A stretch of 64,000 nucleotides of DNA from Cyanophora paradoxa CCMP329 (Eukaryota > Plantae > Glaucophyta): NCBI GenBank assembly GCA_004431415.1, contig QPMI01000561.1:25075-89074 (forward strand), in the 5' to 3' direction. Under the pieces are notes generated by a model that did no database searches, was not told where the DNA came from, and was given only the letters and a program-made list of their open reading frames with translations. Both the position numbers and the translations under genes were made by a program. Position 1 is the first letter of the stretch, and every line of letters starts with the position of its first letter. Below, one piece after another: positions 21,155 to 64,000 of the stretch.

Positions 21155-21206
21155 GCGGCGGCGCCGGCTGCTCTGCGCGGCACTTGTCGGGCCCGCCGCC
21201 CGGGTA

Positions 21207-41860: not shown

Positions 41861-42800
41861 GATTCGATGTTATATCAATAAAATCGATTAATTTATTTGA
41901 ATTTTCACATGAATTTTCATATTTTTATATGCATTTCAATTAATTTAATCGATGTTATATCGATAAACTCGATTAATCGATATTGTATCTTAATTGTAGT
42001 TAATCGGAATTATATGAATAACTTCGATTGATCTTAATTGAATCCTAAATGAATCTAATCGGAATTATATCAATAAATTCGATTAAATCATGTTCTTTTC
42101 CGATTAAATCAATTAAATATTTAAATTTGTTACCATAAGTGGTCTAAGTTGACTCACTTTTCATTAACATTTTGAACTCTTAGTCTCCTTGAATTTCTTA
42201 ATATGACTCAACTTAGTCAACTTAGTCAACTTTGTTACCATAATCAATCAGGGTGGACTCACTTTTAGATCAACTTTGAAATTTCAAGCAAAATCAACTT
42301 GGATTTCAAAAGTGGATCTTCTAAGTGGACTCAATATGTTCACTTTGTGATACATGTTAGCTCAAATCCTTACTGTTTATGGTCAGGGTTGACTAAGTGG
42401 GGGGAGTTGACACATTTTTTGAAATCCTTTTTAGAAAACTTTAGGTCCCAAATATTTCCTGTGAAATTTGAGTCAACTCAACCCACTTAGTCAACCCTTG
42501 CATTGAATTCGTAACAAAATCCATATACTTTTACTACTTTTACGATTAATATGAGTCAACCTTGAGTCCACTTAAATATAAATATAATATAATAGGGGGA
42601 ATCAAGGGGAATGTTGAGTTTTACTGTAATGAAATCGAACATTATTCCAATTACTTACAATAGAATTCTATCGTAAAAAATGTCCGGAATCCGGAAAATA
42701 ATCATTGTATAAAGCTACTGTAGTGAAAGGATATATTATATCTTTTTGTTACAGTAGCTTATCAATGTTATTGTTAGAAAACAAAGGAATCGTTTAGAAA
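41861..42800. repeat. Non-coding AT-rich terminal region with short direct repeats
   Basis: Repeated TTATATC(A/G)ATAAA.TCGATTAA and TAATCGGAATTATAT; many GACTCA/AGTCAAC motifs. Confidence 0.7.
42386..42497. promoter_or_regulatory. Long-spacer inverted repeat, copy 1 (candidate origin or cis element)
   Basis: GGGTTGACTAAGTGGGGGGAGTTGAC ... GTCAACTCAACCCACTTAGTCAACCC (24/26 complementary). Confidence 0.6.
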
Positions 42801-42817
42801 TTCATTATAGAAACCCA

Positions 42818-43216
42818 TCAAAACGGGAATCTATCATGTTTATGTCTCTCAGTCTTCTCAAATGTTAAGAAATTCATTGTTTTATCGATCTCATCTGCTA
42901 CTGATTGTGTTTTATGCTGAGCTTCTTTACCACAACTGAATATATCAATTGCTAACATGCCTTCATTGGAATAACAATGAGCTGTGCAATGGCTTTCATC
43001 TAATAGCAGAACCAATGCAAAACCAGGAGGTGATAGTTTGCCATCAAATATCTCACAGTGTTTATGAACAATCCTAATACCTTGTCTCAATATTGCTTGT
43101 TCAAGGGTTCTCATAATCCAATTACCAAGAAAGCTAACATGCTCATAGCCTGTTGCTATAGCTGTTTTAGCCTTGTAATCAAGCATTACATGAAAGCCTC
43201 TGTATTTAGTCTCCAT
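42818..43216 (-). CDS. speD: Prokaryotic-type pyruvoyl S-adenosylmethionine decarboxylase proenzyme (SpeD/SpeH family)
   Basis: GFHVMLD, PPGFALVLLLDESHCTAHCY (ES self-cleavage site), AIDIFSCG. Confidence 0.85.
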   Translation of the reverse strand: METKYRGFHVMLDYKAKTAIATGYEHVSFLGNWIMRTLEQAILRQGIRIVHKHCEIFDGKLSPPGFALVLLLDESHCTAHCYSNEGMLAIDIFSCGKEAQHKTQSVADEIDKTMNFLTFEKTERHKHDRFPF

Positions 43217-43245
43217 TAAGAATACCTTAGAAAAATTAATTAATC

Positions 43246-43518
43246 CTAATCGAACCTAATGCAAATATCCCTGTACTCTACTTTGATTGATGAAGTAGCC
43301 CTTTTCCTGTAAGCCTGAGAATGCTTTTTGTTGCATTCCCTACAACCTGATCCCTTCACATGATTAAAGGGATATGTAAGGATCACCTTGTTACACTGCA
43401 AACATCTAACAGATACTTTCTCTTGAGCTTTGATGTAATGTGTCTCACTGTAATCGAATTTATCTTTACCATGAACTGTCATAGCAGCATCAATAAACTT
43501 TTTTGTTTTACTATCCAT
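43246..43518 (-). CDS. Small zinc-binding protein, DUF723/homing-endonuclease-associated repeat-like
   Basis: FIDAAMTVHGKDKFDYS...VRCLQC...NHVKGSGCREC. Confidence 0.7.
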   Translation of the reverse strand: MDSKTKKFIDAAMTVHGKDKFDYSETHYIKAQEKVSVRCLQCNKVILTYPFNHVKGSGCRECNKKHSQAYRKRATSSIKVEYRDICIRFD

Positions 43519-43521
43519 ACT

Positions 43522-44373
43522 CTATATATAACCAATATTCTTATGGAGCAGTATCCTGCCCAAAAATGGGGAAATATCGATTTGTCCATAGTATTCAGCA
43601 TAGGTATTCTGCTTTGCAATAAAATCGGTTCTCTCAGCATATAATACACACTTGTAGATACCAAACTTGGTGGCTCTAACCAGAAACTGATAATCTTCCA
43701 AACCAAAATTGACTCCATGATAAGCAATTCCGAAATTATCATATGGGGTGATCACAACAGCAAAATTAGGAGTTCCACCCTCTACTTGACAAAGAGCATA
43801 AACATCTGGTGGGATATCCACAACTACCTTGTAGTGGTCACCAATTTCAACAAGAGAGTCTACTACTGCTGTTTGTTCATTTACAACAATGGGGAATATT
43901 TTTATTATATAGGGAGCATTCATGCTGGGGACATAGGTTCGAATTCTTGTGTTGGGATCAATGGGATTGGGTTGATCATTCACAAATAAAGGCGCTCCAA
44001 CAGCCCCACCAACCCTAAGACCATCCCCAATATATGCTCCCCCCGATTTGCAGTTAATAGCTCCCGACCTAGATTCAAAAGAATAAGTAGACAGAGGATC
44101 TCCATAGCTATCTGGGTCTCCATAATGAGCAGAAAAGTTTGCATTTGTGACAAGTAGCTTAGTTGTCTTAACTATTCCATTATTTTTATCACATCTGAGT
44201 TCCTGTAATCTCAGTTTGTGGGTGGAACCAAAGGTGTTCATTGTAGGTTGGACCTCTGTGGATTGGAGACCCTCTACATCATCAAAGGTAGCATGCTGTA
44301 AAACATGGTTTGCTGGGGCAGCTAATGATAGCTGTGGTGTAATAATTCGTTCAAGTGGGGGTTGCTCAGCCAT
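43522..44373 (-). CDS. Fibre/spike paralogue 1 (shared N-terminal domain plus phage-tail-like C-terminus)
   Basis: ELRCDKNNGIVKTTKLLVTNAN, SGGAYIGDG; C-terminus IPPDVYALC...VVITP...YAERTD. Confidence 0.6.
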   Translation of the reverse strand: MAEQPPLERIITPQLSLAAPANHVLQHATFDDVEGLQSTEVQPTMNTFGSTHKLRLQELRCDKNNGIVKTTKLLVTNANFSAHYGDPDSYGDPLSTYSFESRSGAINCKSGGAYIGDGLRVGGAVGAPLFVNDQPNPIDPNTRIRTYVPSMNAPYIIKIFPIVVNEQTAVVDSLVEIGDHYKVVVDIPPDVYALCQVEGGTPNFAVVITPYDNFGIAYHGVNFGLEDYQFLVRATKFGIYKCVLYAERTDFIAKQNTYAEYYGQIDISPFLGRILLHKNIGYI

Positions 44374-44395
44374 TTTACATTAAAGGGATATATCT

Positions 44396-45241
44396 TTATG
44401 GGGTTGGGTCATCAATTACATCTGGCTCCATGTAAAACCCTGTAACTGAAAGAGTATCAGGAGTTACACCTCTAAGAGCTGATACAGCGGCTATATCTGT
44501 TCTCAAACCGATAAGAGTTATAGTATATAACCCAATATCTGTAACAAACAAGTCAAAGGTGAAATTATTATTATAAACACAGTAGCCATAACCGAAATGA
44601 TTATATCCCTGAACATTGAAATAGTATTTATGACCTACTTGATTGTTGTTGGCTCTACAAAGGGAAAGCATTGCAGATGGAATCGCAAGACCTCTCAGTA
44701 CTCTTTTGGTTCCTTCAATTAATTCCGAGTTTTCAAGAGTAACAGTATATCCAATGTAAAATTGAATTAATGGCTGCTGTGCAACAGGAGTATATAATCG
44801 AATTCGTTGGGGGTCTTCTACATTTTGCTCTAGAGTATCTGGGACATCATTATACGAAATTGAGGATGAAAGCTGACCTGAAATTCGACAGCCACCCCCA
44901 ATAAATGCTCCTCCTGATCTCACAGTAACAGCAGCAGAATTCTTATCGAAATCAAGGGCTTTCAGATCAACACTGTAAGCATCAGGACCTCCATTGGTAG
45001 GCTGGAAAAAGTTAGCATTTGTGACAAGAAGTCGAGTTGTTTTAACCACACCAGAATTCTTATCAGCTCTCAGCTCTTTAACTCGAATAATCGAATTTTT
45101 ATCAAAGGAGTTGCCATTGGAATTGGGTCTCTCTGTGGATTCTAAACCACGAACCTCATCATTTACTTCATGCTGGCGAAAATGCATTGCAGGGGATCCA
45201 AGGGAATATATAGGCAGTTGAACTCGATTATATTCACCCAT
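44396..45241 (-). CDS. Fibre/spike paralogue 2
   Basis: ELRADKNSGVVKTTRLLVTNAN, SGGAFIGGG; C-terminus similar to paralogue 1 (IPSAMLSLC...IGLRTD); likely start MGEYNR at 45241. Confidence 0.6.
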   Translation of the reverse strand: MGEYNRVQLPIYSLGSPAMHFRQHEVNDEVRGLESTERPNSNGNSFDKNSIIRVKELRADKNSGVVKTTRLLVTNANFFQPTNGGPDAYSVDLKALDFDKNSAAVTVRSGGAFIGGGCRISGQLSSSISYNDVPDTLEQNVEDPQRIRLYTPVAQQPLIQFYIGYTVTLENSELIEGTKRVLRGLAIPSAMLSLCRANNNQVGHKYYFNVQGYNHFGYGYCVYNNNFTFDLFVTDIGLYTITLIGLRTDIAAVSALRGVTPDTLSVTGFYMEPDVIDDPTP

Positions 45242-45276
45242 TGCTTCTTTTACTAAGAAGGAAAGAAAAATAATGT

Positions 45277-45543
45277 TCATTGTTCTTCTGTGACATAATT
45301 ATATTCGATACCTTTCTTTACAGTTCCCCTTTGGAATGCCTGTAAAACGATGGCTTCCTTTGAGGTTGGTATTTGAATTCCTGATGCAATGCAAGACTGG
45401 ATCTCTTTCTGAACAATATCATCAATTGCAATTCTTGCCCTGTTATGAACCACATTATCAATCCAATCCTGAACAGAAGCTGCACAGAATTCCATTCCCA
45501 GCTTCTCAGTATCTGAGAGAACTACTTGGTAGATATTCGACAT
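45277..45543 (-). CDS. Small protein resembling marine-phage tail-fibre-associated proteins
   Basis: LSDTEKLGMEFCAASVQDWIDNVVHNRARIAIDDIV...IVLQAF; family recognised from memory. Confidence 0.55.
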   Translation of the reverse strand: MSNIYQVVLSDTEKLGMEFCAASVQDWIDNVVHNRARIAIDDIVQKEIQSCIASGIQIPTSKEAIVLQAFQRGTVKKGIEYNYVTEEQ

Positions 45544-45565
45544 TCCTACTTTATAAAGAGAAAAT

Positions 45566-46586
45566 TTATGTGACACTCAAAAGTTCACCTGTGAATGTTG
45601 TTCGATTTGTGTAGCTACCCCATTATTTGTTACAAGTGTTATATACTCACCCATAGCAATGTTAAGAATTACACTAATGTAAAGCGGTTTATTCGTAAGA
45701 GTTGAGTCATTTTGTGTTATGATACTTTGACCCCCTGGGTCTTGGTCATTTACTTTTAAAGAGAGACTTATTGGACTACTTGAAGTTGAATGGGTATATG
45801 CTGTAAATCTGTAATGACCTGCAACAGGAGCAGTGAACCTTCCATTACTGACATTGAATGCCCCCTATTATTCACAAACACTACTCCCCAATTGATAAGA
45901 GCAGTTTCACTGGTAGCAACATGAGGATAATTAAGTTGAACAGAAAATCGAGGCTGATAGTCATATTTTAAATAACAATTTGTGTTGATTGTCAAGCGAT
46001 TGGCTTCCAGAGTAGCCATAATATCACTGTTGCGTTTCAAAACAAGATTCACATTTGCTCCTGTATCGATTTCAGGTGTGACCACCTTGGAAGTTGCTGT
46101 TATTATCGATTGTGTTGTTTCTGGAATACTTATGCCTCCATTGGCTGTTACTGAACCTGTAAATGTGCTTGTTCCTGTAATGTTTACTTGATTGGCTGTT
46201 AGAGTTCCATCAATCCTTGCCCCATCTCCAATATATGCCCCTCCACTTCTAACTGAAAGAGCAGCATTATTAATTGTATTATCAAAAGTAACTATTTTGG
46301 GTGTGGTGAACCCTCCCACATTGTCATAAATTGCTGTATCTGAAACAATTTGACCTGATTGGACTTGGTTCTTGTTAGATACAATGAGTCCTGTGGTTCT
46401 TATTTTTCCCCCATTGCGATCACATCGAATTTCTTTGCATCTAATCACAGAATTTTGTGAAAACGAATCAGCCCCTGTTGTTTCTGTGCAAATAAACCCA
46501 GGTGTTGCATCTGTTACTGTATGGTTCAGTTGATGTATTTTTGGGGCGGCATAACAGAAAACAGGAACTGCTATTTGTGTGGACAT
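45566..46586 (-). CDS. Fibre paralogue 3 with C1q/TNF-like tip (frameshifted near 45850)
   Basis: EIRCDRNGGKIRTTG, SGGAYIGDG; an alternate frame continues RFTAPVAGHYRFTA...TFTGELLSVT to the stop at 45566. Confidence 0.65.
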
Positions 46587-46608
46587 TCTTTATATTATAC
46601 AGATAATA

Positions 46609-47679
46609 TTATGTAGCAGTAACAAGATAACAAGAAAAATAGTATCTGATATCAAATTGAAGACTGGCTCCAGAAGAATTGCGTATATCAAAGGAGTCAC
46701 CTTCAATAACAGAAAGTAAAATTTCATATGAAATTGGAGTTACAAATGTATTAGAAATCCCTGCGGACGGCATTGAAACCCTTGTTTGGATGGTTGTAGG
46801 ATTTCCATTTAAATAAATGCTGGTAGCAATATGAGTATAAGAGGTTGTGCCAGCTCTCATACATGCAAAGAACACCCTATATACTCCGGAAACAGGAGCT
46901 GTAAATTTTGTGGATGAAAAGTTTCCTTCATTGTTTACAAGATAAGCTCCATTTATAAAGTTAAAGGGTGTTCCAGCTGTAAGTATTATGGACCCTGTCA
47001 AACCAGGAGCTTGTCTTGATATATTCATTCTTGGACAATAGGATCGTTTCAGACCACTATTTTCCGGGATTGTGATTGCTTTCAGATCTGTTATTGTCTT
47101 TTCGAGAGTGAAAATGGTATTTCCGTTTCGTTTATAATTCACATTTGCATCTGTCCCATTATCCATCTCAGGTGCATTAACTCTTGTTGTAGCTTTTCGA
47201 GTTTCAACGCTAACATTTCCCAAGAGTCCACCATTGAAGGTCATCAATCCTGTAAATGAACTTGTCCCATTCACATTTAATTGATTCGCTGTTACAGTCC
47301 CTGCAACATTTGCCCCATCTCCAATGTATGCTCCTCCACTCTTGACAACAAGAGCCGAATTATTTATTGTGTTATCGAAAGTTACTATCTTTGCTGTGGT
47401 GAATCCACCCACATTATCATACACTGCTGAATCTGGGACTACTTGACCTGCTTGAACTTGATTTTTATTCGAGATAATAATTCCTGTGGTTCTTATCTTG
47501 CCTCCATTTCGATCACATCGAATTTCTTTGACTCTGAGTATATTATTCTCTGTGAAAGAGGTATTACTTGAAGTTTCAGTGCAAATATACCCAGGTGTTG
47601 AATCAACTACTCCATGAGAGGTGCTATGAAGTGATTTGGCTGCAAGTTCATAGTTTGGGATTTCTAATAGAGAGGTCAT
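46609..47679 (-). CDS. Fibre paralogue 4 with C1q/TNF-like tip
   Basis: N-terminus close to paralogue 3; KFTAPVSGVYRVFF...GDSFDIR...FSCYLV; likely start MTSLLE at 47679. Confidence 0.7.
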   Translation of the reverse strand: MTSLLEIPNYELAAKSLHSTSHGVVDSTPGYICTETSSNTSFTENNILRVKEIRCDRNGGKIRTTGIIISNKNQVQAGQVVPDSAVYDNVGGFTTAKIVTFDNTINNSALVVKSGGAYIGDGANVAGTVTANQLNVNGTSSFTGLMTFNGGLLGNVSVETRKATTRVNAPEMDNGTDANVNYKRNGNTIFTLEKTITDLKAITIPENSGLKRSYCPRMNISRQAPGLTGSIILTAGTPFNFINGAYLVNNEGNFSSTKFTAPVSGVYRVFFACMRAGTTSYTHIATSIYLNGNPTTIQTRVSMPSAGISNTFVTPISYEILLSVIEGDSFDIRNSSGASLQFDIRYYFSCYLVTAT

Positions 47680-47698
47680 CTTTATAATTACGAAATAG

Positions 47699-50600
47699 TT
47701 AAATTGCGACAGCAATGTAATGAATTGTAACTGGAAATCCTGGTCTGTCAAAAGAACTTAATGGAACTATGTCAAGCTCACAAGTGAAATAGCTACTGTA
47801 AACTTGTTTAAGCCTAACATACATTCGATAGTAGTAGGCTGTCTCATTGTGTTGTATACCAGTTGTTACAATAGGAGGGTTAGCAAAGCTGCTGTTGAAA
47901 TTAATAGTGAGGTTAAACCTATGGTCAGGATTTGCCCAAAGATAAGGAGTAGTGTAAACATACGTTCCTGCTTGGATTTTCCCATTAAAATATGCATTGA
48001 GTTGACTGGAAAGATCTGCCTCTGTAATACATCGACTGATGGTCGCATTATTTGAGGGGTTCATAGCATAGAAATTTCTTGCATAGGCATTTCCACGAAC
48101 AAGTAAGGTTTTATCAAAGTAATTCTGCGAATTGTGGAAGAACCATGTTTCTTCAAACATAGGTCCTGCTGGTTCTACAATCTGACCTGATCCTACATAC
48201 ATTGTGTTGTTGGCTCTGATTGTGGTGGCTGTGAAAGGATCAAGAGTTGGTCTATTGGTCAAATCATTGTAGTTTCCTGAGAAAATTGCAGGTTTGTTAT
48301 AGATATCTGTATTCCAATCATGAGTGTGTGCAAAATCTGTAATCTCTGCCTTTGTGTGGGTGTGACCAACATATGCAACATTTCCAAGATCTGTAATCTC
48401 TGCCTTTGTATGGGTGTGACCAACATATGCAACATTTCCGAGATCTAATATCTCTGATTTAACATGAGTGTGAGCGAAATTCGTAATATCTGCTCGGGTG
48501 TGATAGTGTGCAAAATCTGTAATTTGGGACTTGGTGTGGGTGTGTGCGAAATCTGTGATTTCTGCCTTTGTGTGGGTGTGTGATCTATTATTAAGATCAA
48601 GGAAGCTTCCCGAAAATGCAACAGGATGCAGATTTGCAGCAGTAGGTTTATTAATGAGATCATTATAATCTCCTGTAAATGAAATGGTTTTCAGTTCACC
48701 CCTTCCTACATAATCAGAAGGTAGATCAATCTTGATGGGCATGATAGCTGGATCATCTGGAATCTCATACTCACCTCCTGGGTGAACCACAGGGAAGGTT
48801 TGATTGCTTTCAGTGTGGACAAAGAAATTGCATGCTGTTACTGTTCCATCAATAATCCCACCTGTGAGAGGGAGGTAATTTCCTGTGACTCCTATACCTG
48901 CAATGATTGTATTAAGTTCTGTTTCATCTATGTAGTTTTGGGCTTGCAGGTAATCCTCTGTGACCACTCTTGATATGGTCTCATTGTGAATATTCTTTGC
49001 TGCTGCCCTTTGATTAATTTCTAAAACTCCCTCACCCACTCCACCATTATAATTCGTTTTTATCCATGCCATCTCACATCTCTTATAGTCATCTCGATTT
49101 CCTATGAGAGCATCAGGTAACAGTCTCTCCCTGCTGAATATTAATTTTGGTCTTGAACCATCCAAATCACTCACATCAGTAACATTAATTTGGATTGCTG
49201 CATCTTTGTCATCATAGTTGACTGGATCAGATGGGAGTGGTGGTAATCCTGATGTCATTGGGATGTCATCAGCATAGTAACTTGTCAAATAAATACCTGG
49301 TTTGGTGTCCAATGCTCCAAAGTTTCCACCTGCTGCAATCATCTGCATTCTTGTAGGGGTCTGATGTATAATTCACCCTCCATAGTAGTCCCTGCATCAA
49401 TGCCTTTTCGATTTACATAATAGTCATTGAGTTGCAGCCTTTCAGGTATGGCATTGCTCTGGTAAAGACTCACACCATGTGAGAAATCTGTTAACAGATT
49501 GCCTGCAGATGCAAATTTGGGTTGCTGGTCAATTTCACCCCAAGGGTGTCTGTGATTACAGTTGGTGATCTGGGTATAATCATGAGTGTGAGTATCAGGA
49601 GGGAAGGTGATAGGTTTGTCCACAATATTTGACCAGGCATGTGTGTGATCATCTGGGGGAAAAGTCAATGGTTTGTCCACAATATTTGACCAGGCATGTG
49701 TGTGATCAAAGTCTATAATTTGGTCTTTGGTGTGAGTATGGCTTCTGATCCACCCATCCACAACATTTGAAGTTGGATGATGTGGAAGGTTTGCATTAGA
49801 TGTAACTGTAAGATAATCGACAGTGATATTGCTTGCATAAAGGTTACTTGTGTAAAGGTTACTGGTAACAGTTAGGTCCCCTGTGATTGTTCCACCAGTT
49901 TTGAGAAGATACTTTGATAATTCAAGAGCAAGTTCATTTTTCGTTACATAATTTGCAAGCATAGCAAGGGTAACTATATTCACAAGGATCACAGCAGTAA
50001 GGTAATCCTCTGTGACCACTCTCGAAATATTTTCATTGTGTATGTTTTTTGCAGCCATCCTCTGATTGGCTTCCAGAACCCCACCATAATCGGTTTTAAT
50101 CCATGCAAGCTCTGCCCTCCCATAATTATCATTTGCAGTTCCCACTATGGGAATATACGAATATTTATCTCTGCTGAATACTATCATTGGTCTTGAGCCA
50201 TCTAAACTGCTTACATCTGCTACATGAACCTGTATAGCAGAGTTGAAATTTTGGTAGGTTGCTGGGTCTGTTGGGACTCTGAATGTATCTGTGGGAATGT
50301 CAGCCTCCATGTAGCTTGACACAAAGATATTTGGTATGGTTGCTCCTGGTTCAGGTGGTGGATTATAAGAGCCTGGTAGTGTCCTAATATGAAGTGGTCC
50401 TCTCATAGCTGAATTCGCAAGTGTCCCATTCACATGAACATAGTGTTCATTCAAAAAGATTCTTTCAGGGACATTACAAGTCTGATAAAGAGAAACCCCC
50501 AAGTTATCAAGAGGCTCTACCTTTGCGAATTCTGGTTGGTCATTGATCTCATCCCAAATATGTTCATGTTTGCTTGGTGGGAACTCAGTTGGAATCCCAT

Positions 50601-52005
50601 CAATTTCACCCCAATCATGCCTGTGATCTTCTGGTGGATACTTCTGAGGTTTGCCTAAGATCTCATCCCAATCATGATTGTGATCCTCTGGGGGATACTT
50701 TGCAGGTTTATTATTAATTTGTTCATAATCAGGAAAGAACTCCCAGATCTCAGGTCGAAATCCATCTGGTAATAATTCCTCATGGGGTTCATAAGGTTGC
50801 TCATAATCAACAGCTGGTGGATCATGACCATCTGGTAAATACTCCTCATCAGGTTCATAGTTCTGTTCATACTCATATTCTTGTGGGTCAAAACCATCTG
50901 GGAGTATCTCCTCCTCATTGGGGTCAAACTGATCATACTCATATTCTTGTGGGTCGAAACCATCTGGTAAATATTCTTCCTCATCTGGAACGAATTGATA
51001 TTCATCAAGCTCTAATATATCGACTTCAGGAGGTAAATACTGCTCATCTATTTGCTTTCTGGGTTCAATTATAGGTTTATTGCGAACTTGCTCCCAACTA
51101 ACAATATTCTGCCCAAAGGCTACATCTTCAGTTGCTGTGTATTCTCTTCCAGGTTGCTTCTTTGGTGTTAAATCGGGTGGTCCATTGGGAAATGGAATAG
51201 GGAATGGGACAGTAGGTCCATTGGGACCATAATGCTCAATGATTTCCCTTAGAGTTTTCTCACTAACAAGCTTCTCTCCATTTGCATACACATTGCTGCC
51301 ATGGATATTTCGCCATTGCCTGGTTCTAATTCCAAGGTCTTTCACATTGCTATACAAAGGCAAAAGGTGCCTATCCATTTCGACTAAATCAGGATGTAAA
51401 TGGATTGCTACTGGTTGACTGGGGCTACTGTTGATTGTAATTGATGGCTTTTTTTGATGGACATCTTTTGGAGTAAAAAACCCAAAAGGCTCATTCCTCG
51501 CAAAGTCATATGTAATATCCTTGGGGTATACATCATTTGTGTAGGAGACCTGATTTGTGTTGGCAATGGGACCCACTTGCAATACTTGGGGGACCTCAGC
51601 TTTTGCAGTGCTGCCCTCATTGTAAATTCGCAAAGCTGTGTTCTGTTTGCCCTGCTCATCTTGAACATTGAAAATCAATCGACCACTATCGAACCTGGAA
51701 GGTATATCTGGGTGAGTGCCACTGGTTTTTAGTTTCCTAGGTCTCCTTCTTGTTGCTTTGATCTCTGCCACTTGGTTTGCTTTCACATTACCCAAACTAA
51801 AGGCTACACTGACATCCTCTTTATCTGGATCGGTTTGATTCACAGATAAAGCATGCTCCCTTGATTGAGTCTTTGATGAATTATCAGAGCTGTGGTCAAT
51901 TGAAACTGAACCCTTTACTTTAATATTATCAAAGTTCACATGCTTGGTGCTGCTTGCATTATCATCTTGAATGGTTTCTAGATTGGGTGGGTAATTGAAG
52001 CTCAT
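47699..52005 (-). CDS. Giant (~1430 aa) fibre/structural protein with His-rich tail repeats and an H-type-lectin-like C-terminus (one frameshift ~49345)
   Basis: KP..PP..H.H.W..I and HTHTKAEITD repeats, EEYLPDGFDPQEYEY repeats, an internal ~200-aa duplication spanning the ORF break, C-terminal INFNSSFANPPIV...IHYIAV. Confidence 0.7.
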
Positions 52006-52048
52006 GGCTTTTACTATATGGATTTATAAAATTCCTGATAAGTAAAAG

Positions 52049-53601: not shown

Positions 53602-54524
53602 AAACTCCAACTGAAAAGAATTATCGATTCCATTCATATCAATCAGTTCACCAAAGTAATCTTTAAACTCAACTGTGAGTTCCCTTATCACCAGGTTTCT
53701 GTCATTTATCTGAATGAATTCTGCATGTTCACCACTATGGTAAACATAGCCACCTATATCCTTACTCAATTGCAATCTAAGGATTGCCCCTGGTTATGTG
53801 GTTGCGATTTCGGAATTATATTGTGTCTGCTGGCAAAAGGGGCAAGCTCTTTAATGTGCATGTATAGATACTGCTCAGCATTCATATCAGACATCTTTCT
53901 GCTGTCAAAATAATATTGCAAGGGCTTAGATGAGAGTCTGGGTCCTGAAAAGGTGGTTCCCCATGCTGGGTGATCAGGTGTAATAGGTTTGCCATCATAC
54001 TTTAACAGGTTCTCAGGTCGATAGGGTGATCCACCAACAGGAGGAGTGCTATAATACCCATTGGTGTATTCAGTAGAACTCACACCCAAAAGCTTCCCTA
54101 TTCTCTGGTTGCTTGCAATAAAACGAAACTCATGGTTACTGTAAAACTCCACTTTATAGGTAGTTGGGTTATAGAATATCTTGAACTCAAAAGCTACTGT
54201 TTTGCCTGCAATGGTTTGGAAGCTTGAATAGTTCAGCCCATAATTATAAGGGTGTGTTACCCCAAAATGACCCTGATTGATGTAGCCACTGGGAAGGGGA
54301 TACACTTGTTGTGTGATCACTTGGTTATATGAACCATCTTGGTAATTAAACTGAACTGTTAGATGATCAGTTCCCACACTGTTATAGATACTGTTTGGAA
54401 TCTCTGCATAGAGAACCCTACATTCCCTTGGTCTCTCTACTGGAGTTGTGAGGGTGACCCTGTAAGAGTTTTCATTTTGTCCTTGGCTTCTATCCCTGCT
54501 ATCAATATTAACGAGCCGGTTCAT
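53593..54524 (-). CDS. Minor capsid (penton) protein 1, frameshifted ~53770
   Basis: VNIDSRDR...AEIPNSIYN; YLYMHIKEL; ELTVEFKDYFGELIDMNGIDNSFQLEF. Confidence 0.85.
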
Positions 54525-54553
54525 TTTAATATATAAATATAGATAAAAGAAGA

Positions 54554-55564
54554 ATGCCTGTGGATTACATCGAGGTTAGCTCATTTAATACAATCTCTGG
54601 TGATGGTCCCACATCAAGCTTTGTGGCTAGACTCCCCAGTAGTTATGAGAATGTGAGGGCTGTGAGACTGGTCTCAGCCGAATTTTATAACAGCATCCCT
54701 ATGGTGAGTGGTGAAACCAAAGCAGGAGATGTCACAGTTGATAACACATTTAGTATTTATTATTCGGAACAAACTCCAGGAGCTGGAAGCTCAGGAATTC
54801 CAACAACTCGCCCAGCTGCTGATTTTGAACAATGGAAACAATTCATGGTAAATCGCGAGACCCCCATCCAAAGCCACCAACAGCTGGTGAATGTAATCAA
54901 CTCAAAATTCATTGGCAGAACTCCCCAACCATCCATTCGCTGCAAATGGGATGAGTCACTGAAACGAATTATATTCCACTCGGCAGTGCCTTTTTACCTG
55001 GCTTTCTCACTTGCTGTAAACCCAAGCCAACAAACAATCCAAAAGCTGTTGAGTTCAGCTAGACTGCTGGGTCTTGATCCTGGAAGATATGGTAACTCCC
55101 CAATCCAATCACAGGTCTATGATGCTCTCACTGATGGAATCTTTACTGATGGTCGAGTGAATGGCATTATATCTTCTTTTGAGCCTGAGAAGACCAGGGA
55201 CAGTGTTTTGTTTGTGAGAGTAAAGGAGCTGGGTGATCTGGTGCAATGTGGGGATGGTCTTCTGACTGGTTACTTTCACAAAATAGTGGTCCCTGATAAA
55301 GACTATGGTGAGCATGTTGTTTACAATTCAACAGAAGCTCACCCACTTTACAAATACTATAATAAAAAGGTTGGATTATCCACTTTCTCGGTTGATATTG
55401 TAAATGCTATTAATGAACCAATTGATTTTGAGGGTCAACCTGTTCATCTTACCTTTGAAATTCGCTATGGTGATGAGCCAGCTGGGGACCCAGTTTATGA
55501 ATACTTCAAGATGCGAATGTCACAGCTTCACCCTTCCTATCCAGTTATTACAAACTTCGCATAA
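54554..55564 (+). CDS. Minor capsid (penton) protein 2
   Basis: FVARLPSSYENVRAVRLVSAEFYNS; LFVRVKEL; FSVDIVNAINEPIDFEGQPVHLTFEI. Confidence 0.8.
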   Translation: MPVDYIEVSSFNTISGDGPTSSFVARLPSSYENVRAVRLVSAEFYNSIPMVSGETKAGDVTVDNTFSIYYSEQTPGAGSSGIPTTRPAADFEQWKQFMVNRETPIQSHQQLVNVINSKFIGRTPQPSIRCKWDESLKRIIFHSAVPFYLAFSLAVNPSQQTIQKLLSSARLLGLDPGRYGNSPIQSQVYDALTDGIFTDGRVNGIISSFEPEKTRDSVLFVRVKELGDLVQCGDGLLTGYFHKIVVPDKDYGEHVVYNSTEAHPLYKYYNKKVGLSTFSVDIVNAINEPIDFEGQPVHLTFEIRYGDEPAGDPVYEYFKMRMSQLHPSYPVITNFA

Positions 55565-55617
55565 ATTAAGGATCATTGGTAGATTTTTTATGTTGCAGTA
55601 TAATAAAAGAGAATATA

Positions 55618-56986
55618 ATGGATATCACTTCCACTCTTCAAAGACTTTCGCTGAAAGAAGCCCTAACAACCCCAGAAGAGGCGAAAGCCTTTTTCCTGGA
55701 TAACTCCCTTATGCTTGGTCTCGAATCCAAATCTAAGCCAGTTCTAGTTGTTGTGAATCCCAGCAATACTTTTGAGAATAATGTTGGAAATCGCATTTCC
55801 TTCAAGCTACCTCGCTACAATTTCTGTGGAAAACTCGAACTTGCTTTCGACCTTCCAGCCATCACGTTTGCTGGTGATACTGACCTAGTTCGCAATGGAT
55901 ACACTCGCCCAGTTGGTGCTTTAGTTCAGCGACTTGAAATTACCTATGGATCTTACACCTACCATATTCCATCTGATTTCCTTGCTCATTTCCCCTGGTC
56001 TATTATTCGGAGGATCAACTAGCTAAAAAGAAGCGATCAATGGGCATGGTTCATGGCATTCCTGCTCATGGAACCAACCGCCTTGGTGGCTCATTTTTCG
56101 TTGAAATTCCTGTGCCTTGGCTAAATCACTACCTTCCCTTGGTGCTTTATCTGGTGAAATGGTTGTTACTGTTTGGTTTAAGGATGCTGGAAAGGGTTAT
56201 GTTGAAACTTCCTATGGTGGTCGTGGTCTTACTGTTGCAGCAGATGATGTAGATTATTCAAAAGATGACGGTCTTGGAACTGCCCCTGCTGAAACTGTTC
56301 TGGCAAATGTTGGTCAAAACATCACAGACTTTACTCTTGGTGCAACAACCCCTGTCATTTCTATTACTTCTCCTCGCCTTTACATGCATGCTATTAATGT
56401 TTCTGATGAGCTTTTCGCTACTGTAATTGAAAAAGTAAAGACTACTGGCATGGCTATTCCCTCCCTTGATATTGGATTTGTAGATGCTAGTGCTTTCCCT
56501 GCCAAGGGCAATGCCCAACCCAATCGAATTAACCTCTCTCAAATCTCAGGTCTTGTTTATGCTCTGCTTGTTTCAGTTCGTGATAATGCAACTGTTGATA
56601 AATCCACTGGCTCCCACAGTGTTCTTAAGACCTATGCCAACTCCAAAGATATTACTTTCACTGTTGAAATTAATGGACAGCGACTTTATGCCACTGAGCC
56701 AATTTCCCTACTCAAAGGTGCTGAGCTAATTGCTGATGCCTTCAAATGCTCTAACATGGATAAGGTTGCTGATCGCTATGTCCTTTCAGGTTTAAGTTTC
56801 TGCATTGATGGAGAGAAGGCAATTCGAAATATTGCCCAGTCTGGTTATGTTGATTTAACAAATTCCTCCTCTTCATTCCTCACCCTGTACATGCCTTCAG
56901 ATAAGGTAATCGATGTTAATGTTCGCGCTCTCATGCATTCCTATATAATTTTGGACAAGGATGGGCTTCGTCGTATAAATTTGTAG
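55618..56986 (+). CDS. Double-jelly-roll major capsid protein (~455 aa, frameshifts ~56000-56120)
   Basis: Lies between penton and ATPase; beta-rich ISFKLPR, LVQRLEITYG, FFVEIPVPW, FTVEINGQRL, GYVDLTN, and a C-terminal YIILDKDG. Confidence 0.75.
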
Positions 56987-57051
56987 ATTGTGACGATATT
57001 CAGTCTCTCTGCATTATTTTTATCTGTACTTATTTAGAAAGATATACAACA

Positions 57052-57832
57052 ATGCAAGATCTGGAAGAATTTAATGCTGGTGAAATGATAGAACCCCCTT
57101 TCAGACTACTCATACTAGGTAAAAGTGGATGCGGAAAAACTGAAGCCGTAAAATATTATTTGAAACAGCTGCATGATGCCAAAAAGATTGATACAACCCT
57201 TATTATATCCGCTACCTCATTCTCACATTTCTGGACAAAGCTGCTACTGTTCAACTGGGTGCATGGGATCCCCAATACATGTCGAAAATTATAAAAGAAA
57301 GAGAGGCAAAAAGGGAGAAAGGAGAAGAACTTAACCATATGCTGGTGATTTTAGAGGATATGATAGAAAATGACCAGCTGGATCTCAGTCGAGATAAAAC
57401 AGTGGGAATGCTTTATGTTCGTGGCAGACATGTCAATATATCAATTATAACTATTTCCCAAAATTAAGAAAGGTCGCAAGTGTTATTCGCTGCAATAGTG
57501 ATATAGTAATTATGGTTTGTGCAAGCAATCAAAAAGAGCTGGAAGCATTTGCAGAGGAGTTTTCGACTTTTCCTCGCAAAGAAGATTTCTATCAACTGTT
57601 TGAAGAGTATGTCCACTCATATCAATTCCTTGTTTATACATCTTTCAAGTATAATGTGGGCTACTATGTTGATAAAGCCGATTTAGTTGGAGATTTCGAT
57701 TTTCCTCGCTTCCACAGGAAGCCCAAGAAGAAAGAAGATGAACTGAAACCACCAGAGAAAGAGGAAGCCCCTAAAGAAGTGAAAAGCCAAGTCCATAGCA
57801 ATAAATTGATGCGATATAAACGCGGTTTATAA
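57052..57832 (+). CDS. A32/FtsK-HerA-type DNA packaging ATPase (frameshifted)
   Basis: Walker A PFRLLILGKSGCGKT, Walker B LVILEDM, RGRHVNISIITISQ, IRCNSD. Confidence 0.9.
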
Positions 57833-57860
57833 AATTATCTCTCATTCTAATAAAGATACA

Positions 57861-58595
57861 ATGCCTCCCAAACGAAAGATAGGGATTCCAGCTGGGGCTG
57901 TTGGCTATTCAGGTGGTGGAAACAATGGATCCATTAATACTGAACCAATGAAATTCAATGGTATGAATGAGGTGAAGCCCTCACAGCAAGAAGAAGACCC
58001 CCTCAATGCTGCCTATGAGGAATCAGTTGATGACAAAGCCCCACAGGCTTCAACCAGTGACCAACTCAACATCTCACCAGAAGCCTCAAAAATGAAAGCT
58101 GTTGCTGAGGGTGCCAGGCGAATTATTGGGGCTGCTGATGACAAAGGTTTAGGCTTGCAAGATCTTTCACTGGCTCGCAAAGGTGAGGGTCTTAGTAAGG
58201 AATCAGACAAGGTAATTCAGTCTATGGCTGGTGAAGTCACATACAAGACTGCTCCCACTCAAAATATTCATCGAATTCCCAAGGCTCAATGGGATGAGAT
58301 GACTGCTAAACTCAAAGATCTGGAAGCCAAATCAAGTGCCTTGGAGCAGTATGTTACTGAGAAGAAAGAGAGATCCAAGCTAAAGGAGATGCTTCGAAAG
58401 GAAGTTTATAAAATGGGCATTACTGGTGTCCCAGATAAACAGTTTATTGCTAAGAAAGAGAACCAAATTGATGAGCAGGCAGTAGATGAAATGAAAACAA
58501 AGACCCAGAAGGGAACTATTGAACCTGGTGCCACCAAAGCTGAAGTCGAAAAGGGAGTAGCCCCAACAGTATATAAAAGACGAGTTTGGCTTTAA
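57861..58595 (+). CDS. Hypothetical charged/coiled-coil viral protein
   Basis: Intact 244-aa ORF with an AT-rich upstream motif. Confidence 0.6.
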   Translation: MPPKRKIGIPAGAVGYSGGGNNGSINTEPMKFNGMNEVKPSQQEEDPLNAAYEESVDDKAPQASTSDQLNISPEASKMKAVAEGARRIIGAADDKGLGLQDLSLARKGEGLSKESDKVIQSMAGEVTYKTAPTQNIHRIPKAQWDEMTAKLKDLEAKSSALEQYVTEKKERSKLKEMLRKEVYKMGITGVPDKQFIAKKENQIDEQAVDEMKTKTQKGTIEPGATKAEVEKGVAPTVYKRRVWL

Positions 58596-58617
58596 TTTTC
58601 TCTGTTTTATTAGAGAC

Positions 58618-59119
58618 ATGGATATAATACGAAAGTTTATTGAGATGCTCAGTCTGCATGTGGTGAGCAATTGCCACAGTGGATGCTGTGACACAACAAT
58701 AGAGTTTGAGATGTCAGATACTGAGGATAATGTATCTGAGGCAAGAGAGAGAAGGAGATCAACAGTTTCAGTGGAGTCAATGCCAGCAGACCCCACAGAG
58801 TATACATATGAGCAACAGGAGTATCCAAGGAGAAGTTCTTTACCAGGCGAAAACGTTTTCTCAGCAAATATTAATGGAGGATACAATTAGTTTGATCGAG
58901 TTTACTAGTGATGAGCCTTTAACTGAGGGTGCTATTAGACACATTCTAGCAAAGCAGAAACGATATAGAGAGGACCCAGCATATAGAGAGTATAAGAAAC
59001 AACAAGCCCTGGCATCCTATTATCGCAGAAAAGCCCAAAAAGAGGAGCAGAGACCCAGAGGGAGACCGATTAAATATTATTTGCCTACTGATAGTAGCAA
59101 TGGACCCACAGGTCTATAA
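58618..59119 (+). CDS. Hypothetical protein with C-terminal basic helix and AT-hook (probably one frameshifted ORF)
   Basis: KRYREDPAYREYKKQQALASYYRRK...RPRGRPIKY. Confidence 0.55.
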
Positions 59120-59270
59120 GATACTTGAGAAAAAGCGTCTCAGTATGCTACTGAGGCAGCTATTAAAGTTTACAGACAGGAACTGGTGTTCGCAACAAAA
59201 AATGACTTAAAGAAAAAGTAGATAGGTTGTATTGAGGAAAAATTATTTTCGTATCTACTATTAAAGAGAA

Positions 59271-59597
59271 ATGCCGAATATCCGCAAGATACTCACAGAT
59301 GATGAAAAAGCAGAGAAGCTGAGACTGAAAAGGGAGCAAGATGCCCAAAGAAAACGCGAAGCCTATCATAAAAAGAAGGAGGAACGATTATCCCAAGGAG
59401 CCGCTACAGTTCACACACCAGAAGAACTCAAAAAGATTGCCCTCAGACACCAGAGGAAATACAGGGAAAATGAAGAATATCGCGAACAGAAAAGGCGAAA
59501 GCGCTGGAATACTACCACAAGAAAAAAGACGAACTACCCAAGACAACCAAAGAGCATAAACCGGTTGGAAGACCTCGGAAATATATCGAAGAATAAA
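59271..59597 (+). CDS. Basic AT-hook protein, paralogue of the upstream ORF (frameshift ~59495)
   Basis: RKYRENEEYREQK, then in an alternate frame KALEYYHKKK...KPVGRPRKYIEE*. Confidence 0.6.
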
Positions 59598-59813
59598 TTC
59601 TCGATCGAAACAAATTTTGTAGAAATCGATTTGATCGGAGGCAAAAAAATGACAGCTTTCTTCCCTCTTTTTTAAAACTGTACCTATATATCGAGACAGT
59701 ATCCCGACCCAAAACTACTTAAGGACTTGGCAAATAATAGGATATATATAAAAGACAATTCCTCCTTCCGAAATTATTTTCTTCGTTAAAGGTAGAAGTC
59801 CCCAAAATCGAAA

Positions 59814-62404
59814 ATGAACAAAATCGAGAAATTCGCCACCCTGTTGAAAATGCTACATTCCTTAGTACTCTCATTGGTGATCGCAACAAGGTCACCATGT
59901 ATTTGATTCTGCTGAAGATGCCCTTGAAGCCATTGATAATAGCAAGGTTAAGACCTGGGCTGAATGCATTCAGCCTGAACAAGTCACCAGAGTTTACCTG
60001 GACCTGGATAAATTCGCTGATTTGAAGGAGAACATTGCTGAAAACTATGCTGAGGCTGAAACTGTTGTAAGAGAGATGAGAGATAAGCTATGGAAGCGAT
60101 CTGGGACCACTTCGATTAACGATATTGCTGTTGCAGTTCGCCATAGAAGGGTTTATTTGATCAAGGAGGATGTCACCAAGTTCAAGATCTCAGCCCACTT
60201 TATCATTAAATCGCTTGCATGCAAACATGAAGATATCCCCAAGCTTTTCAAAGCTATGGGATTGGTGAAAAATGAGGATTATGACAGTGGAGTTTACAGC
60301 TCCATACAGAACCTTATCTGCCTCAATTGCTGCAAAGGTGAGACTCTGGATGCTCAAAATAAATCAAAGAAAGATGTTGATAAAAACGTTTGCTTTAAGA
60401 AATTCGTTGACTGTGACAAAGTGTTAATGCGAAATGAGGACTTCTTTGTATCTTTCTTCTCAGCTTCTACTAAACTTGTGGATGAATCGAATATTTCTGC
60501 ATTCGCAAATTATAGCCCTGAGCCAAAACCAGTTAAAAAGGAGCCAAAAAGTGATAAAGTGAAGACTGAGAAGGTAGAAGCTGAAAAAGACACTGAACCC
60601 GAAAATCCTGTTACTTTCGAACTGCTACAAAGTGTTATAATGGGTCTGAATGGTGAGAGAGCTAATGAGTATAAAACTTGGATTGATGTAGGACTGGTCA
60701 TCATCAATGTTGGGGAAGACAACAAGTTCACCCCTAAAATGCAAGCTGAACTCTTCCACCAATTCTCAGAACAGAGTGACAAGTATGATTATGATGAATG
60801 CCAGGAGAAGTTTACACAGCTTCGCAGAAGCAAGAAGAAGGCTGAGCCTGGCAAAGTGTTGACCTTCAAATCCTTGGTTTATTGGTTGAGCAAAGATAAC
60901 AATGAGCTTTTCAAGGAACTCTTCCCCAAAAAGTATGCATTCCTACCAGAGGACACAGATGAAATCGATTACAAGACTGCAAGTATCCCTCCTTTGGCTG
61001 AACATTACAATGTGCATAAGAGGTATTTCAATGCTCGAATGCATCATGTTGAAAATGTTGGTTGTGTGATGCTCTGGGATGAACAACTACTTTGCTGGAT
61101 GCCCAAAGATATTGGGAAGCTCTCTACAAAGCATTTCCCCATTTGATGCATAAGGTGATTGTCAATGAGGGAACAGATAATGAGAAAGAGAAATGGGAGC
61201 AATCATTTAGGAAATGGATTGTGGATCCAACAGCCACAAGATCAACTTACATGGATTTCCTTCCCCCTCCTGCTACTCTCAGTGCAAAATGCAAGTCTGT
61301 ATTTAATCTCTATCCAGGAATGAAGGTCGACCATCAGCAATTCGAAAATGCTCCAGAGGATGTAACTGCTGAGATGATTAAGCCTTTTCTAGATCACTTG
61401 TTCTTAATGTCTGGTGAGGATCAAAATACCTATGAATATCTGTTGAAATGGTTTGCCCACATGCTGCAAAAGCCTGGGGAACTCAATGGAGTATCCTTAA
61501 TCTTCATTGGTGAGCAGGGAACTGGTAAAAATGTGTTGGTTGATACTTTCCAAAAGAAGATACTTGGAGATGCCCTAAGTTATGCAACTGGAAAGCCAAA
61601 AGAGGATCTGTTTGGTCGATTTGCCCACAATAGAGAGGATAAGATCTTGATTGTTGTGAATGAAGCCTCAGGCAAGGACACATTCGAAAATAATGATATG
61701 CTCAAAGATCTCATTACTTCTGATAAGATTGTTATTGAACACAAAGGGATAGATTCATACACAAAAAGCAACTTTGCCAGGATTATATTTACCAGCAATA
61801 ATAACATTCCAGTGAAAATTGAAGCTGGAGATAGGCGATTTGTGGTTGTTGAAGTTAGTAAGAAATTCGCAAAGGATAGGTCATACTTCCTTCCACTTGT
61901 AAAATGGCTAAATGATCACTGCAATATTCGAAACATTGCCCACTATTTGAGAACCAAAGTTGACTGTGAGGATGTGAACTGGATTGCTGATAGACCCCTT
62001 ACAAATAAATACTATTTAGCCCAGCAGGTATGCGCCCCAATCATTCTTATGTTCACTAAGTGGCTTGTGGATCGAGGCTTAATTTCCGAGAATAAATGCA
62101 AGTCTGGTAGCCTTGTGGAAACCTGGAAGTGGTTCCAGGAGTTTATTACCAGCAACAAATATAAAACGATTATAATAGTCGCAGATATTATACAGAAATG
62201 CGAAGTGTGACATATATCCAAGTGAAAACTACAAATGGCAAACAATACTATCATTTCTTGTTCCCACAAGTATTTGAGGAATTCAGAAAGATGAAACTTG
62301 TAGATGATGAGACTATTGAGGAAGAAGCTAATCCAAGGATGAAACAAGACCTACCTGCTGCTGATCCTGATGCATCAGATTATGATTCAGATGTTGAAGT
62401 TTAA
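59814..62404 (+). CDS. AEP primase - PriCT-2 - SF3/D5-like helicase (start uncertain, frameshifted)
   Basis: VYLDLD, KISAHFII, DSGVY; PriCT-2 YKTWIDVG...FSEQSDKY; GEQGTGKN, IVVNEA, IIFTSNN, DRRF. Confidence 0.88.
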
Positions 62405-62490
62405 GTTTAGTCAAAGGTGGACTCACAGTTGATTCAAATTTATCATAAAAGACCCAAACAGTCTTTTATTTACGGTTTATTTATCGATTA

Positions 62491-62596
62491 GGTTGACTAA
62501 GTGGGGGGAGTTGACTCATTTTTTCACAGATTCTAAAAAAGGACTCTGCCCTAAAAAGAAATAAAAAGTGCCTCAACTCCACCCACTAAGTCAACC
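62491..62596. promoter_or_regulatory. Long-spacer inverted repeat, copy 2
   Basis: 25-bp arm identical to 42387-42411; the right arm TCAACTCCACCCACTAAGTCAACC is 22/24 complementary. Confidence 0.6.
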
Positions 62597-62647
62597 AAAA
62601 AATGATTTAAGAGATAGAAAAATATATTTATATGTAAGTAGTAAGAA

Positions 62648-63007
62648 ATGGCTGGAACAGATCATGATTCTGGATCGATCTATATGATTGAGAGTCAGGA
62701 AATGAACAAAGTCTACATAGGAAGAACCTCACAGCCACTTCAAAAAAGATGGAGACAACACAAATCAGGTCAAATGCCATCTACAGCAGACCTATGCAAG
62801 GCTTCTGATGTGAAGTTCTCAGTCCTGTATTCAAGTAAGAAGGGTGGGCATGAAGACCTAATGAACAGAGAAGCATATTACATGTATCTCTTTGAACCTT
62901 GGATAGTCAATTTACAAAAACCGAAATCCCGATTTAGGATTAATAGGTTTTTGCGATTCCATTCAGAGGAAGCCAGTGGATCCATTAAACATTTAAATTG
63001 CGTTTAG
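62648..63007 (+). CDS. GIY-YIG endonuclease
   Basis: GSIYMI...KVYIGRT...LQKRWRQHK...REAYY. Confidence 0.85.
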   Translation: MAGTDHDSGSIYMIESQEMNKVYIGRTSQPLQKRWRQHKSGQMPSTADLCKASDVKFSVLYSSKKGGHEDLMNREAYYMYLFEPWIVNLQKPKSRFRINRFLRFHSEEASGSIKHLNCV

Positions 63008-63055
63008 AACATCCTAAAATAAAATATCCCTTAGAATAGGAACAAGTTAGGAATA

Positions 63056-64000
63056 ATGCCCCGAATTACCAACAAACTCATAAGGAGAAGAAATGGGAAC
63101 TCATGGGATTGCTGGGAACACTTTATGCAGCCCATGAAATTACAGAGGCTGAATATGACCGGGAAATAGATTTAATTGCAAAGGGCAGACCCACTTTAAG
63201 CAGATTAACCAGAAAAGCAAATAACCTATATGATAAAATTGAAACTTGGATGAATTGGATAGGCTTAGGCAAATAGAACCAGATGCAGAAGATGGAACAG
63301 CCATGAATGAATTATATCGCTGGCTCACTTACAGAGCCAGAAGGGAAGTTGTTGTAGATGTGATTGAATTCCTGGATAGAATTGCTACATCCTTCCAAAT
63401 CGATTAAAGCAGGGTTTAGATCAATTCAGGGCAATCAAGGTTCGCTTGTCTTTTATCTGCAAGTTCGTTAAAGTGAGCAATCCACAGGTTTGGATATCGA
63501 AATACATTTACAGTGATTACTTTGTATTAACCAGGTCGAGAAATATTCGAACTGAGCTGAATAAAGCAGCCCAAATGTGTCAGGAGCAGATGAATGTGGT
63601 TGATAGCTATCGCTTAGAAAGAATTGAAAATACTCAGAGTGGCTATTATGAGTTATGCTCCAACTGGTGGATGCTTTCTACAAACCCCAGAGTGGATTGC
63701 TAGGAAGAGAGCCACAGTAAATATTCGAAATATTGATGATTCCTGCTTCGAAAATGCAATTTTGGCATATATTCACAGAAAAGCGATAAAACTCCCATAA
63801 GAGGAATGAGCTTTCACAATATCGCAAATGGAAATACTCAGCAATCGCTTATAATCCGCTGGCTCTCAATTTCGATAACATCCCATTCCCTGTTGCCTGT
63901 GATGCTGAATAATTGATAAATTCGAGGCTCAAAATGCAGGCATTAGCATTAATATATTCGGAATCGATGGAGAGGTTGTTTATCCCCTGCATCAATCCAG
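63056..64000 (+). CDS. N-terminal part of a protein-primed family B DNA polymerase (Polinton-type), frameshifted and truncated by the window
   Basis: Across frames: NIRNIDDSCFENAILAY, LNFDNIPFPV, IDKFEAQNAGISINIFG...VYP. This matches the N-x-D-x-x-C-F / LNF-x-x-I-x-FPV / KFE-x-QN-x-x-ISIN pattern of Maverick pPolB N-termini; catalytic motifs are not in the window. Confidence 0.7.

Follow-up and report, generated by a model that had tools for sequence, protein, structure and literature searches.

A 64,000-nucleotide (nt) stretch of the Cyanophora paradoxa CCMP329 genome (contig QPMI01000561.1, positions 25,075 to 89,074; called the window here) ends in the left part of an endogenous Polinton-like virus (PLV), which starts at position 41788 and continues beyond the window. 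We found that this element has lost most of its CG dinucleotides, and that the loss follows a graded and additive rule covering about 4 bases on each side of the CG, with about 25-fold loss in the worst flanks. The same DNA also avoids a set of short words, one of which, GGCC, is absent. The graded CG loss, which resembles a host methylation pattern, and the restriction-like, all-or-none avoidance of words appear to be separate signals.

A sequence-only reading of the window had claimed that CG survives in the viral DNA almost only as TCG or CGA. Its manual count for positions 61081 to 62400 was exact upon recounting (13 CG, 12 of them preceded by T or followed by A, and 6 of them TCGA). From 42800 to 64000, 275 CG were present against 831 expected by base composition, about one third, and 238 of these (86.5%) were TCG or CGA, compared with 51.3% by chance (P = 4e-35). 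The claim was therefore largely right, although "almost only" is a little strong, since 37 of the 275 were neither. The observed-to-expected ratio (o/e) was 1.19 for TCGA, 0.73 for TCGC/GCGA, 0.36 for TCGG/CCGA and 0.26 for TCGT/ACGA, and it fell to 0.05 to 0.17 in the six classes that have neither a preceding T nor a following A. The host part (positions 1 to 41780) was indeed CpG-rich, as that reading had stated, with a CG o/e of 1.13. The start of the element, placed by the reading at 42800, had to be moved to near 41790, where the GC content drops from 0.59-0.68 to 0.31-0.42. The CpG bias was present in each half of the element as well as in its unannotated DNA, and non-CG cytosines were not depleted.

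The NCGN bias persisted under control for codon and base composition; its disappearance under such a control, which the reading had named as the outcome that would speak against it, did not occur. In 500 synonymous-codon shuffles of 21 open reading frames (ORFs), with CG counted across codon junctions, the element had 28 TCGA against a shuffle mean of 37.8, 35 one-sided sites against 138.3, and 17 VCGB (neither T before nor A after) against 133.1. The lowest VCGB count in the 500 shuffles was 109. CpG o/e was below 0.7 in 20 of the 21 ORFs. A long interspersed nuclear element (LINE) in the host part of the window served as a control, and its ratios were 1.11 for VCGB, 1.02 for junction CpG, 0.91 for GGCC and 1.16 for GTAC.

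The effect of the flanks was examined by comparing CG sites with TG/CA sites. At position -1, T was favoured, and sites with A or C were the most lost. An A or T at -2, -3 and -4 each added strongly to CG survival (P = 1e-10 to 1e-12); the effect faded by -5/-6, with a single blip at -7. The two sides of the CG acted additively, without interaction (twice the log-likelihood difference 4.2, 6 degrees of freedom). At synonymous sites, CG was kept at 24 of 49 positions in A/T-rich T-CG-A contexts, equal to the non-CG baseline of 0.45 to 0.48, and at 11 of 538 across the three worst flank classes, with distant flanks adding little. Both halves of the element agreed on the rule, the host LINE showed no flank effect, and a control comparing GC with GT/AC showed none beyond -1. 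The rule is thus wider than TCG/CGA. The spared context spans about 10 bases rather than a trinucleotide, and no methyltransferase or nuclease that spares TCG/CGA, as the sequence-only reading had proposed, was identified. Three simpler causes were also rejected. Protection by ApT methylation fails because TTCG was spared as much as ATCG (0.186 versus 0.165). A TCGA adenine methylase as the sole cause would spare neither TCGB nor VCGA and would not yield graded flanks. A union of CG palindromes is contradicted by the equal depletion of the nonpalindromic ACGG, ACGC and CCGC.

The second signal concerns short words, for which expected counts were obtained from two shuffles. GGCC was absent from the element against 23.6 and 19.0 expected, and from each of the 21 ORFs; the last GGCC of the window lies at 41377, and the host part holds 444. 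GTAC was found 3 times (39.2 and 20.4 expected), GTGC plus GCAC 33 times (70.4 and 64.0 expected) and CTNNAG 26 times (64.8 and 66.0 expected), with all 16 subclasses of CTNNAG under expectation. In line with restriction-site avoidance, such words lay below the codon and dinucleotide expectation across reading frames: GGCC, GTAC and CTNNAG were low in three of three frames, and GTGC/GCAC in two of three. The signal for CTAG was weak (15 against 34.5 and 23.7, within the range of the second shuffle). CATG, GANTC, TCNGA, CANNNTG and GGWCC were avoided on a Markov model and lost the signal under codon control, GGSCC contains GGCC and is not a separate word, and TGNCA was low under one shuffle only. 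In the host intergenic DNA at 20400-25000, short palindromes were abundant (GTAC, TCGA and CTNNAG at about twice the expectation), so that GTAC and CTNNAG show opposite trends in virus and host.

GGCC and GTAC are classic restriction sites, and bacteriophages that avoid restriction sites have short, mostly palindromic words erased in all frames. Taken alone, the all-or-none words of the element probably represent such avoidance directed against a giant virus. Here the virus is eukaryotic and the presumed cutter would belong to another virus. In the giant algal virus AaV, methylation has been measured at the motifs CTNNAG and CTAG (PMC12700378); GGCC is the target of M.HaeIII (PMC11879396), and chloroviruses encode 2-4 bp cutters as well as nickases of the CCD and RAG format (PMC7019647).

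To place both signals among relatives, 125 PLV and virophage loci of public viral contigs were fetched with helicase, ATPase and virophage-capsid alignments. After removal of 29 loci shorter than 8 kb and 4 second loci on the same contig, the panel contained 92 loci; near-identical strains were kept separate, and the counts therefore overstate independence. In an ORF scan of 16 of the 18 helicase-fetched loci, most showed A32 ATPases or virophage capsids; panel loci outside the scan were classed by the gene that had fetched them. At least one 4-base palindrome was avoided in 83 of the 92 loci, at least two in 63 and at least three in 56; CTNNAG was avoided in 15 and TCGA itself in 34. For comparison, 80 phage loci were fetched and 72 used, and a sample of 10 showed phage polymerases, integrases or tail genes. 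One 4-base palindrome was avoided in 18 of these 72 and two in none, although the set is an imperfect control, being a single, mostly GC-rich and apparently temperate group.

The CG rule of the element was found in none of the 92 loci. Junction CpG was 0.23 in the element against a panel minimum of 0.45 (median, 0.99), the ratio of TCGA to VCGB survival was 7.8 against a maximum of 2.6, and the score for T at -1 was 1.17 against a maximum of 0.48. Three relatives that erase CG palindromes (L101, L102 and L107) keep CpG at 0.82 to 0.95. Therefore, the CG rule is not generic to parasites of giant viruses. The erasure of palindromes across PLV and virophage loci is broader than the CG rule and may be the more general result.

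Several individual loci of the panel deserve mention. Among loci L002-L019 and L101-L207, 12 4-base palindromes are avoided in L107, and eight are missing altogether from L013. A PLV that lacks TCGA, GGCC, CTAG, AGCT and CTNNAG encodes a C5 cytosine methylase (L007:15237-16265), and another PLV gave a weak N6/N4 methylase hit (L003:5664-6488). In the virophages L170-L196, CpG o/e went down to 0.24-0.5 with no preference for TCG, and codon control left most of them at 0.45-0.7.

We tentatively interpret the graded CG loss as the outcome of selection against sites that the CG methyltransferases of the host can methylate, the leading one of the readings compared here and one that we consider plausible. 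C. paradoxa methylates CG only (32%), most of its repeats are methylated, and methylation is enriched on viral genes and linked to their silence; its genome encodes two DNMT1 and one DNMT3 and contains endogenised giant viruses (PMC12344493). CpG methyltransferases vary in activity with the flanking bases, over about 100-fold for mouse DNMT1 (PMC7381644) and more than 400-fold for M.SssI (PMC11879396). Because graded flank effects are known for such enzymes and the host methylates CG, the CG loss was assigned to host-methylatable sites. A self-made pattern is not expected, because none of the 156 catalogued glaucophyte elements carries a C5 methyltransferase in the available Table S6 of PMC12220804. 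Under this interpretation, host CG methyltransferases would methylate and silence integrated copies, and copies with fewer methylatable CGs would reactivate more often. The surviving context, a T-CG-A core in A/T-rich flanks, would be what the host enzymes or their readers disfavour. The virus would also pass through an infection by a giant virus, its presumed helper, in which the avoided words get cut.

Several observations weigh against this interpretation. The host LINE belongs to a class reported to be methylated and has not shed CG, which means that CG loss to escape silencing is not general in the C. paradoxa genome. No characterised enzyme matches the pattern. The element agrees with mouse DNMT1 at -1 (that enzyme prefers TCCGTA and TACGGA and disfavours G) and is opposite to it at -2, where DNMT1 disfavours C yet the element loses its C sites; the link between CG loss and host enzymes is one that we infer. 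For the giant-virus step, viral-contig searches and metagenome searches with capsid, helicase and patatin found no helper giant virus genome for the element. The AaV methylases for CTNNAG and CTAG are described without associated endonuclease domains in the available text of PMC12700378, and methylation in Acanthamoeba mimiviruses and zamilon gave no support for an anti-virophage role in that of PMC7253447.

The sequence-only reading had allowed for long-term deamination or for avoidance driven by an enzyme. A context-specific CG loss driven by an enzyme in the viral DNA is supported, and its deamination arm is disfavoured. Passive decay, in which methylated CG would turn into TG or CA at a pace set by the flanks, either in the chromosomal copies or while viral DNA replicates unrepaired, and the sites themselves would be under no selection, is unlikely. 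It would fit the replacement of C by T before G at two-fold sites (0.08 versus 0.3-0.5), and a mutational process would readily give the multiplicative two-strand pattern; the o/e of 1.28 for TG and CA fits selection or decay alike. Fungal repeat-induced point mutation (RIP) and APOBEC3 editing also remove CG or C from repeated or viral DNA, but basidiomycete RIP and APOBEC3 target TCG/TC, which the element spares. At four-fold sites before G, lost C was not shifted to T (log-odds -0.30 +/- 0.15, where a shift of +0.54 was predicted), although this is a weak test, as the baseline of 34 panel loci was -0.08 +/- 0.42 and the deviation amounted to about 1.7 standard deviations (about 0.9 on the other strand). 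Arginine codons, in which deamination is nonsynonymous, followed the same bias: CGN:AGR was 60:35 after T and 31:116 otherwise, and CGA:CGT was 53:7 compared with 134:123 for GGA:GGT (P = 7e-11 and 8e-08 for the arginine-codon biases). Slow loss of nonessential arginines could contribute to this. Among LINE copies, 5 of 29 transitions were CG linked against an opportunity of 36% (40 of 111 rows), so that chromosomal CpG decay is not evident in the LINE. In 40 of the about 1950 differences among element copies, the copy in the window had a CG that others lack at 4 places and lacked one at 2. Lost CG reappearing as TG/CA and a dominance of CG transitions between copies, the marks of decay, were thus not found, within the modest power of these comparisons. 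Together, the four-fold, arginine-codon and LINE results lean towards selection on sites over decay, though not decisively.

Enzymes of a giant virus could instead have imposed all of the depletion, including that of CG, if restriction enzymes acted together with a nuclease or nickase directed at CG (degenerate CGB/VCG) or at methyl-CG; we regard this as possible but doubtful. CG loss and restriction-like avoidance do occur in the same DNA, the untouched host LINE would be accounted for, C. paradoxa does harbour endogenised giant viruses (PMC12344493), and small cutters and nickases of the appropriate format exist in chloroviruses (PMC7019647). Survival that is multiplicative per strand (1.26 for TCGA, 0.43 for one-sided sites and 0.10 for VCGB) suits an asymmetric site, and GTAC (0.18) relative to GTGC (0.37) behaves in the same way. 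However, none of the 92 PLV and virophage loci shows the CG rule, though many avoid palindromes heavily; the CG signal changes by degrees across about 10 bases, whereas GGCC drops to zero; and no CG-specific viral nuclease turned up in the available literature on viral restriction enzymes. Host silencing and a giant virus, the two candidates of the sequence-only reading, are both still viable, though each appears to account for a different signal. As for base or codon composition or an assembly artefact, the element is A/T-rich, at an overall GC of 0.39, and the low CpG of several virophages is largely due to the rarity of C at third positions. This explanation is nevertheless very improbable, because the signal survives codon shuffles, is present in both halves and in unannotated DNA, is absent from the control beyond -1, and is matched by independent short-read contigs.

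The element itself is of a known kind, as glaucophyte elements have already been catalogued: 156 are listed, 66 with AdoMetDC, 10 with a D12 adenine methylase and none with a C5 cytosine methylase (PMC12220804). Protist endogenous PLVs likewise form low-GC insertions with a jelly-roll capsid, A32 ATPase, primase-helicase, lipase, fibres and AdoMetDC (PMC10120064, PMC12220804), and C. paradoxa PLVs that share the fibre and patatin-discoidin architecture of the element have been mentioned (PMC12220804). Unlike here, CpG or motif depletion is not described for those elements in the available texts. Silencing of protist viral insertions by 5-methylcytosine is also known: the CG methylation of the host marks and silences the viral DNA, and counteraction by the viruses has been proposed (PMC12344493, 10.64898/2026.10.09.758095, 10.64898/2026.06.19.733378). 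The proposed counter-measure in PLVs is a TET enzyme (10.64898/2026.06.19.733378), whereas here it would be the loss of target sites, with the flanks reading out the host enzyme. Two proposals are already in print: that PLVs shield themselves from giant-virus restriction with methylases that they encode, and that TET genes counteract silencing (PMC12220804, PMC6459981, 10.64898/2026.06.19.733378, 10.64898/2026.10.09.758095). Mouse DNMT1 (PMC7381644) and M.SssI (PMC11879396) likewise show graded effects of at least 100-fold over several flanking bases; the ranking in the element matches neither everywhere and was read from a genome sequence rather than an assay. CpG suppression in small animal DNA viruses (PMC2396429) is another case of CG loss in viral DNA. 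Our literature search, whose coverage was incomplete with most subscription papers outside it, did not return any description of CpG loss that depends on the flanks, or of avoided sites, in PLVs or virophages.

It is conceivable, although we hold it with considerable reserve, that PLVs and virophages bear a readable record of their enemies: most would have erased giant-virus restriction sites, and this glaucophyte virus would also have purged host-silenceable CGs, with its SAM (S-adenosylmethionine) decarboxylase perhaps blunting methylation further. If so, giant-virus restriction enzymes would act as an anti-virophage defence, and the genome of the element would spell the flank code of an uncharacterised enzyme. 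That giant-virus restriction-modification acts on virophages is an idea that found no support in amoebal mimiviruses (PMC7253447); it predicts just such a footprint of sites avoided across many PLVs and virophages. The avoided words could also serve to match parasites to helper viruses. The existing Cyanophora methylome can test whether host CG methylation shapes silenced viruses; the quantitative prediction is that CG methylation per NNNNCGNNNN class will be lower at A/T-rich T-CG-A flanks.

The features of the window are collected in the table below.

Features of the element and of the host control in the window (positions of the 64,000-nt stretch)
Feature	Position	Strand	Evidence or remark
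Endogenous PLV, left part	41788..64000	.	CG and motif depletion along whole length
Hairpin, 35-nt arms, 3-nt loop	41788..41860	.	Inverted repeat, 91% complementary, at host/virus junction
Four 55-nt subterminal repeats (family D3) rich in ATCGAT/TCGA	41860..42109	+	Repeat search
S-adenosylmethionine decarboxylase-like (AdoMetDC), intact ESH self-cleavage motif	42818..43216	-	Pfam AdoMet_dc 2.5e-11; PDB AdoMetDC proenzymes 4e-05
Paralogous virion/fibre-like gene cluster	43522..52005	-	Includes phage-tail-repeat and H-lectin protein 47699-49348
Patatin lipase then discoidin domain, two ORFs in window	52049..53571	+	Patatin 1.1e-20, F5_F8 3.2e-07
Predicted major capsid protein, in pieces	55618..56986	+	54% to C. 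paradoxa protein P0001
A32-type packaging ATPase, in pieces	57052..57832	+	Pox_A32 on two pieces, 2.6e-04 and 5.6e-05
Primase (PriCT-2) and superfamily-3 helicase	60076..62210	+	PriCT_2 1.9e-09, DUF5906 8.3e-22; overlaps manually counted stretch 61081-62400
GIY-YIG endonuclease	62648..63007	+	1e-10
Host LINE retrotransposon, in-window control, outside virus	26585..36011	+	RVT_1 3.7e-14

The hairpin is likely the end of the element, of which only the left one lies within the window. Positions 41790-42800 contain 9 TCGA sites, 3.4 times the expectation, and the repeats that follow the hairpin (41788-42109) are enriched in TCGA/ATCGAT, the sole CG context kept by the element. The host was recognised from the reverse transcriptase of the LINE, which had 76-98% relatives in the EukProt set containing P0001 of C. 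paradoxa. Related copies of the element form a family: four DNA runs from one organism showed about 1950 variable places over 20 kb. Short-read contigs agreed with the window (for example, 617 nt with 0 other letters and 749 nt with 2), and single-base indels relative to them were seen, which probably explain some of the split genes.

Membership in the PLVs rests on a capsid, an A32-type packaging ATPase and a replication gene (PriCT-2 with superfamily-3 helicase), all of which were found. The double jelly-roll major capsid protein is a structure-based prediction: the ORF pieces had no Pfam hit, and the Foldseek hits listed for the low-confidence model of P0001 (pLDDT 38) were all double jelly-roll capsid or scaffold proteins, the best at 7e-06. 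The capsid family has 2 representatives, and P0001 is the only close relative. Relatives of the primase-helicase were located in PLV and virophage contigs. No maturation protease or virophage-type capsid was found among 25 ORFs scanned in the left part of the element, and six fragments from 63000-64000, where the start of a pPolB gene had been suspected by eye, gave no relevant Pfam hit. For ten ORFs of the element, no exact-sequence match was present in the protein collection. Searches for DNA of close relatives in viral contigs returned one weak locus with the capsid query and none with the helicase query; in metagenomes, the capsid alignment returned none and patatin one distant locus.

The product of AdoMetDC has been called a competitive inhibitor of methylation (PMC2933235). 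Judged by its sequence, the AdoMetDC-like gene could speculatively be a candidate anti-methylation gene, acting through lowered SAM or inhibition of methylases; a plain role in polyamine synthesis is equally likely. In the fibre-like cluster, the protein at 47699-49348 matched the Pfam families PTR (5.3e-08) and H_lectin (1.6e-04), an architecture also named for a C. paradoxa PLV (PMC12220804). Four small paralogues at 43522-47679 share an N-terminal module and have no convincing Pfam family. Finally, a GTTGACTAAGTGGGGG-type motif occurs in inverted pairs at 42376-42498 and 62480-62595, 20 kb apart, the first site lying near the left end and the second between the helicase and GIY-YIG genes; the motif is possibly an origin or a promoter element.

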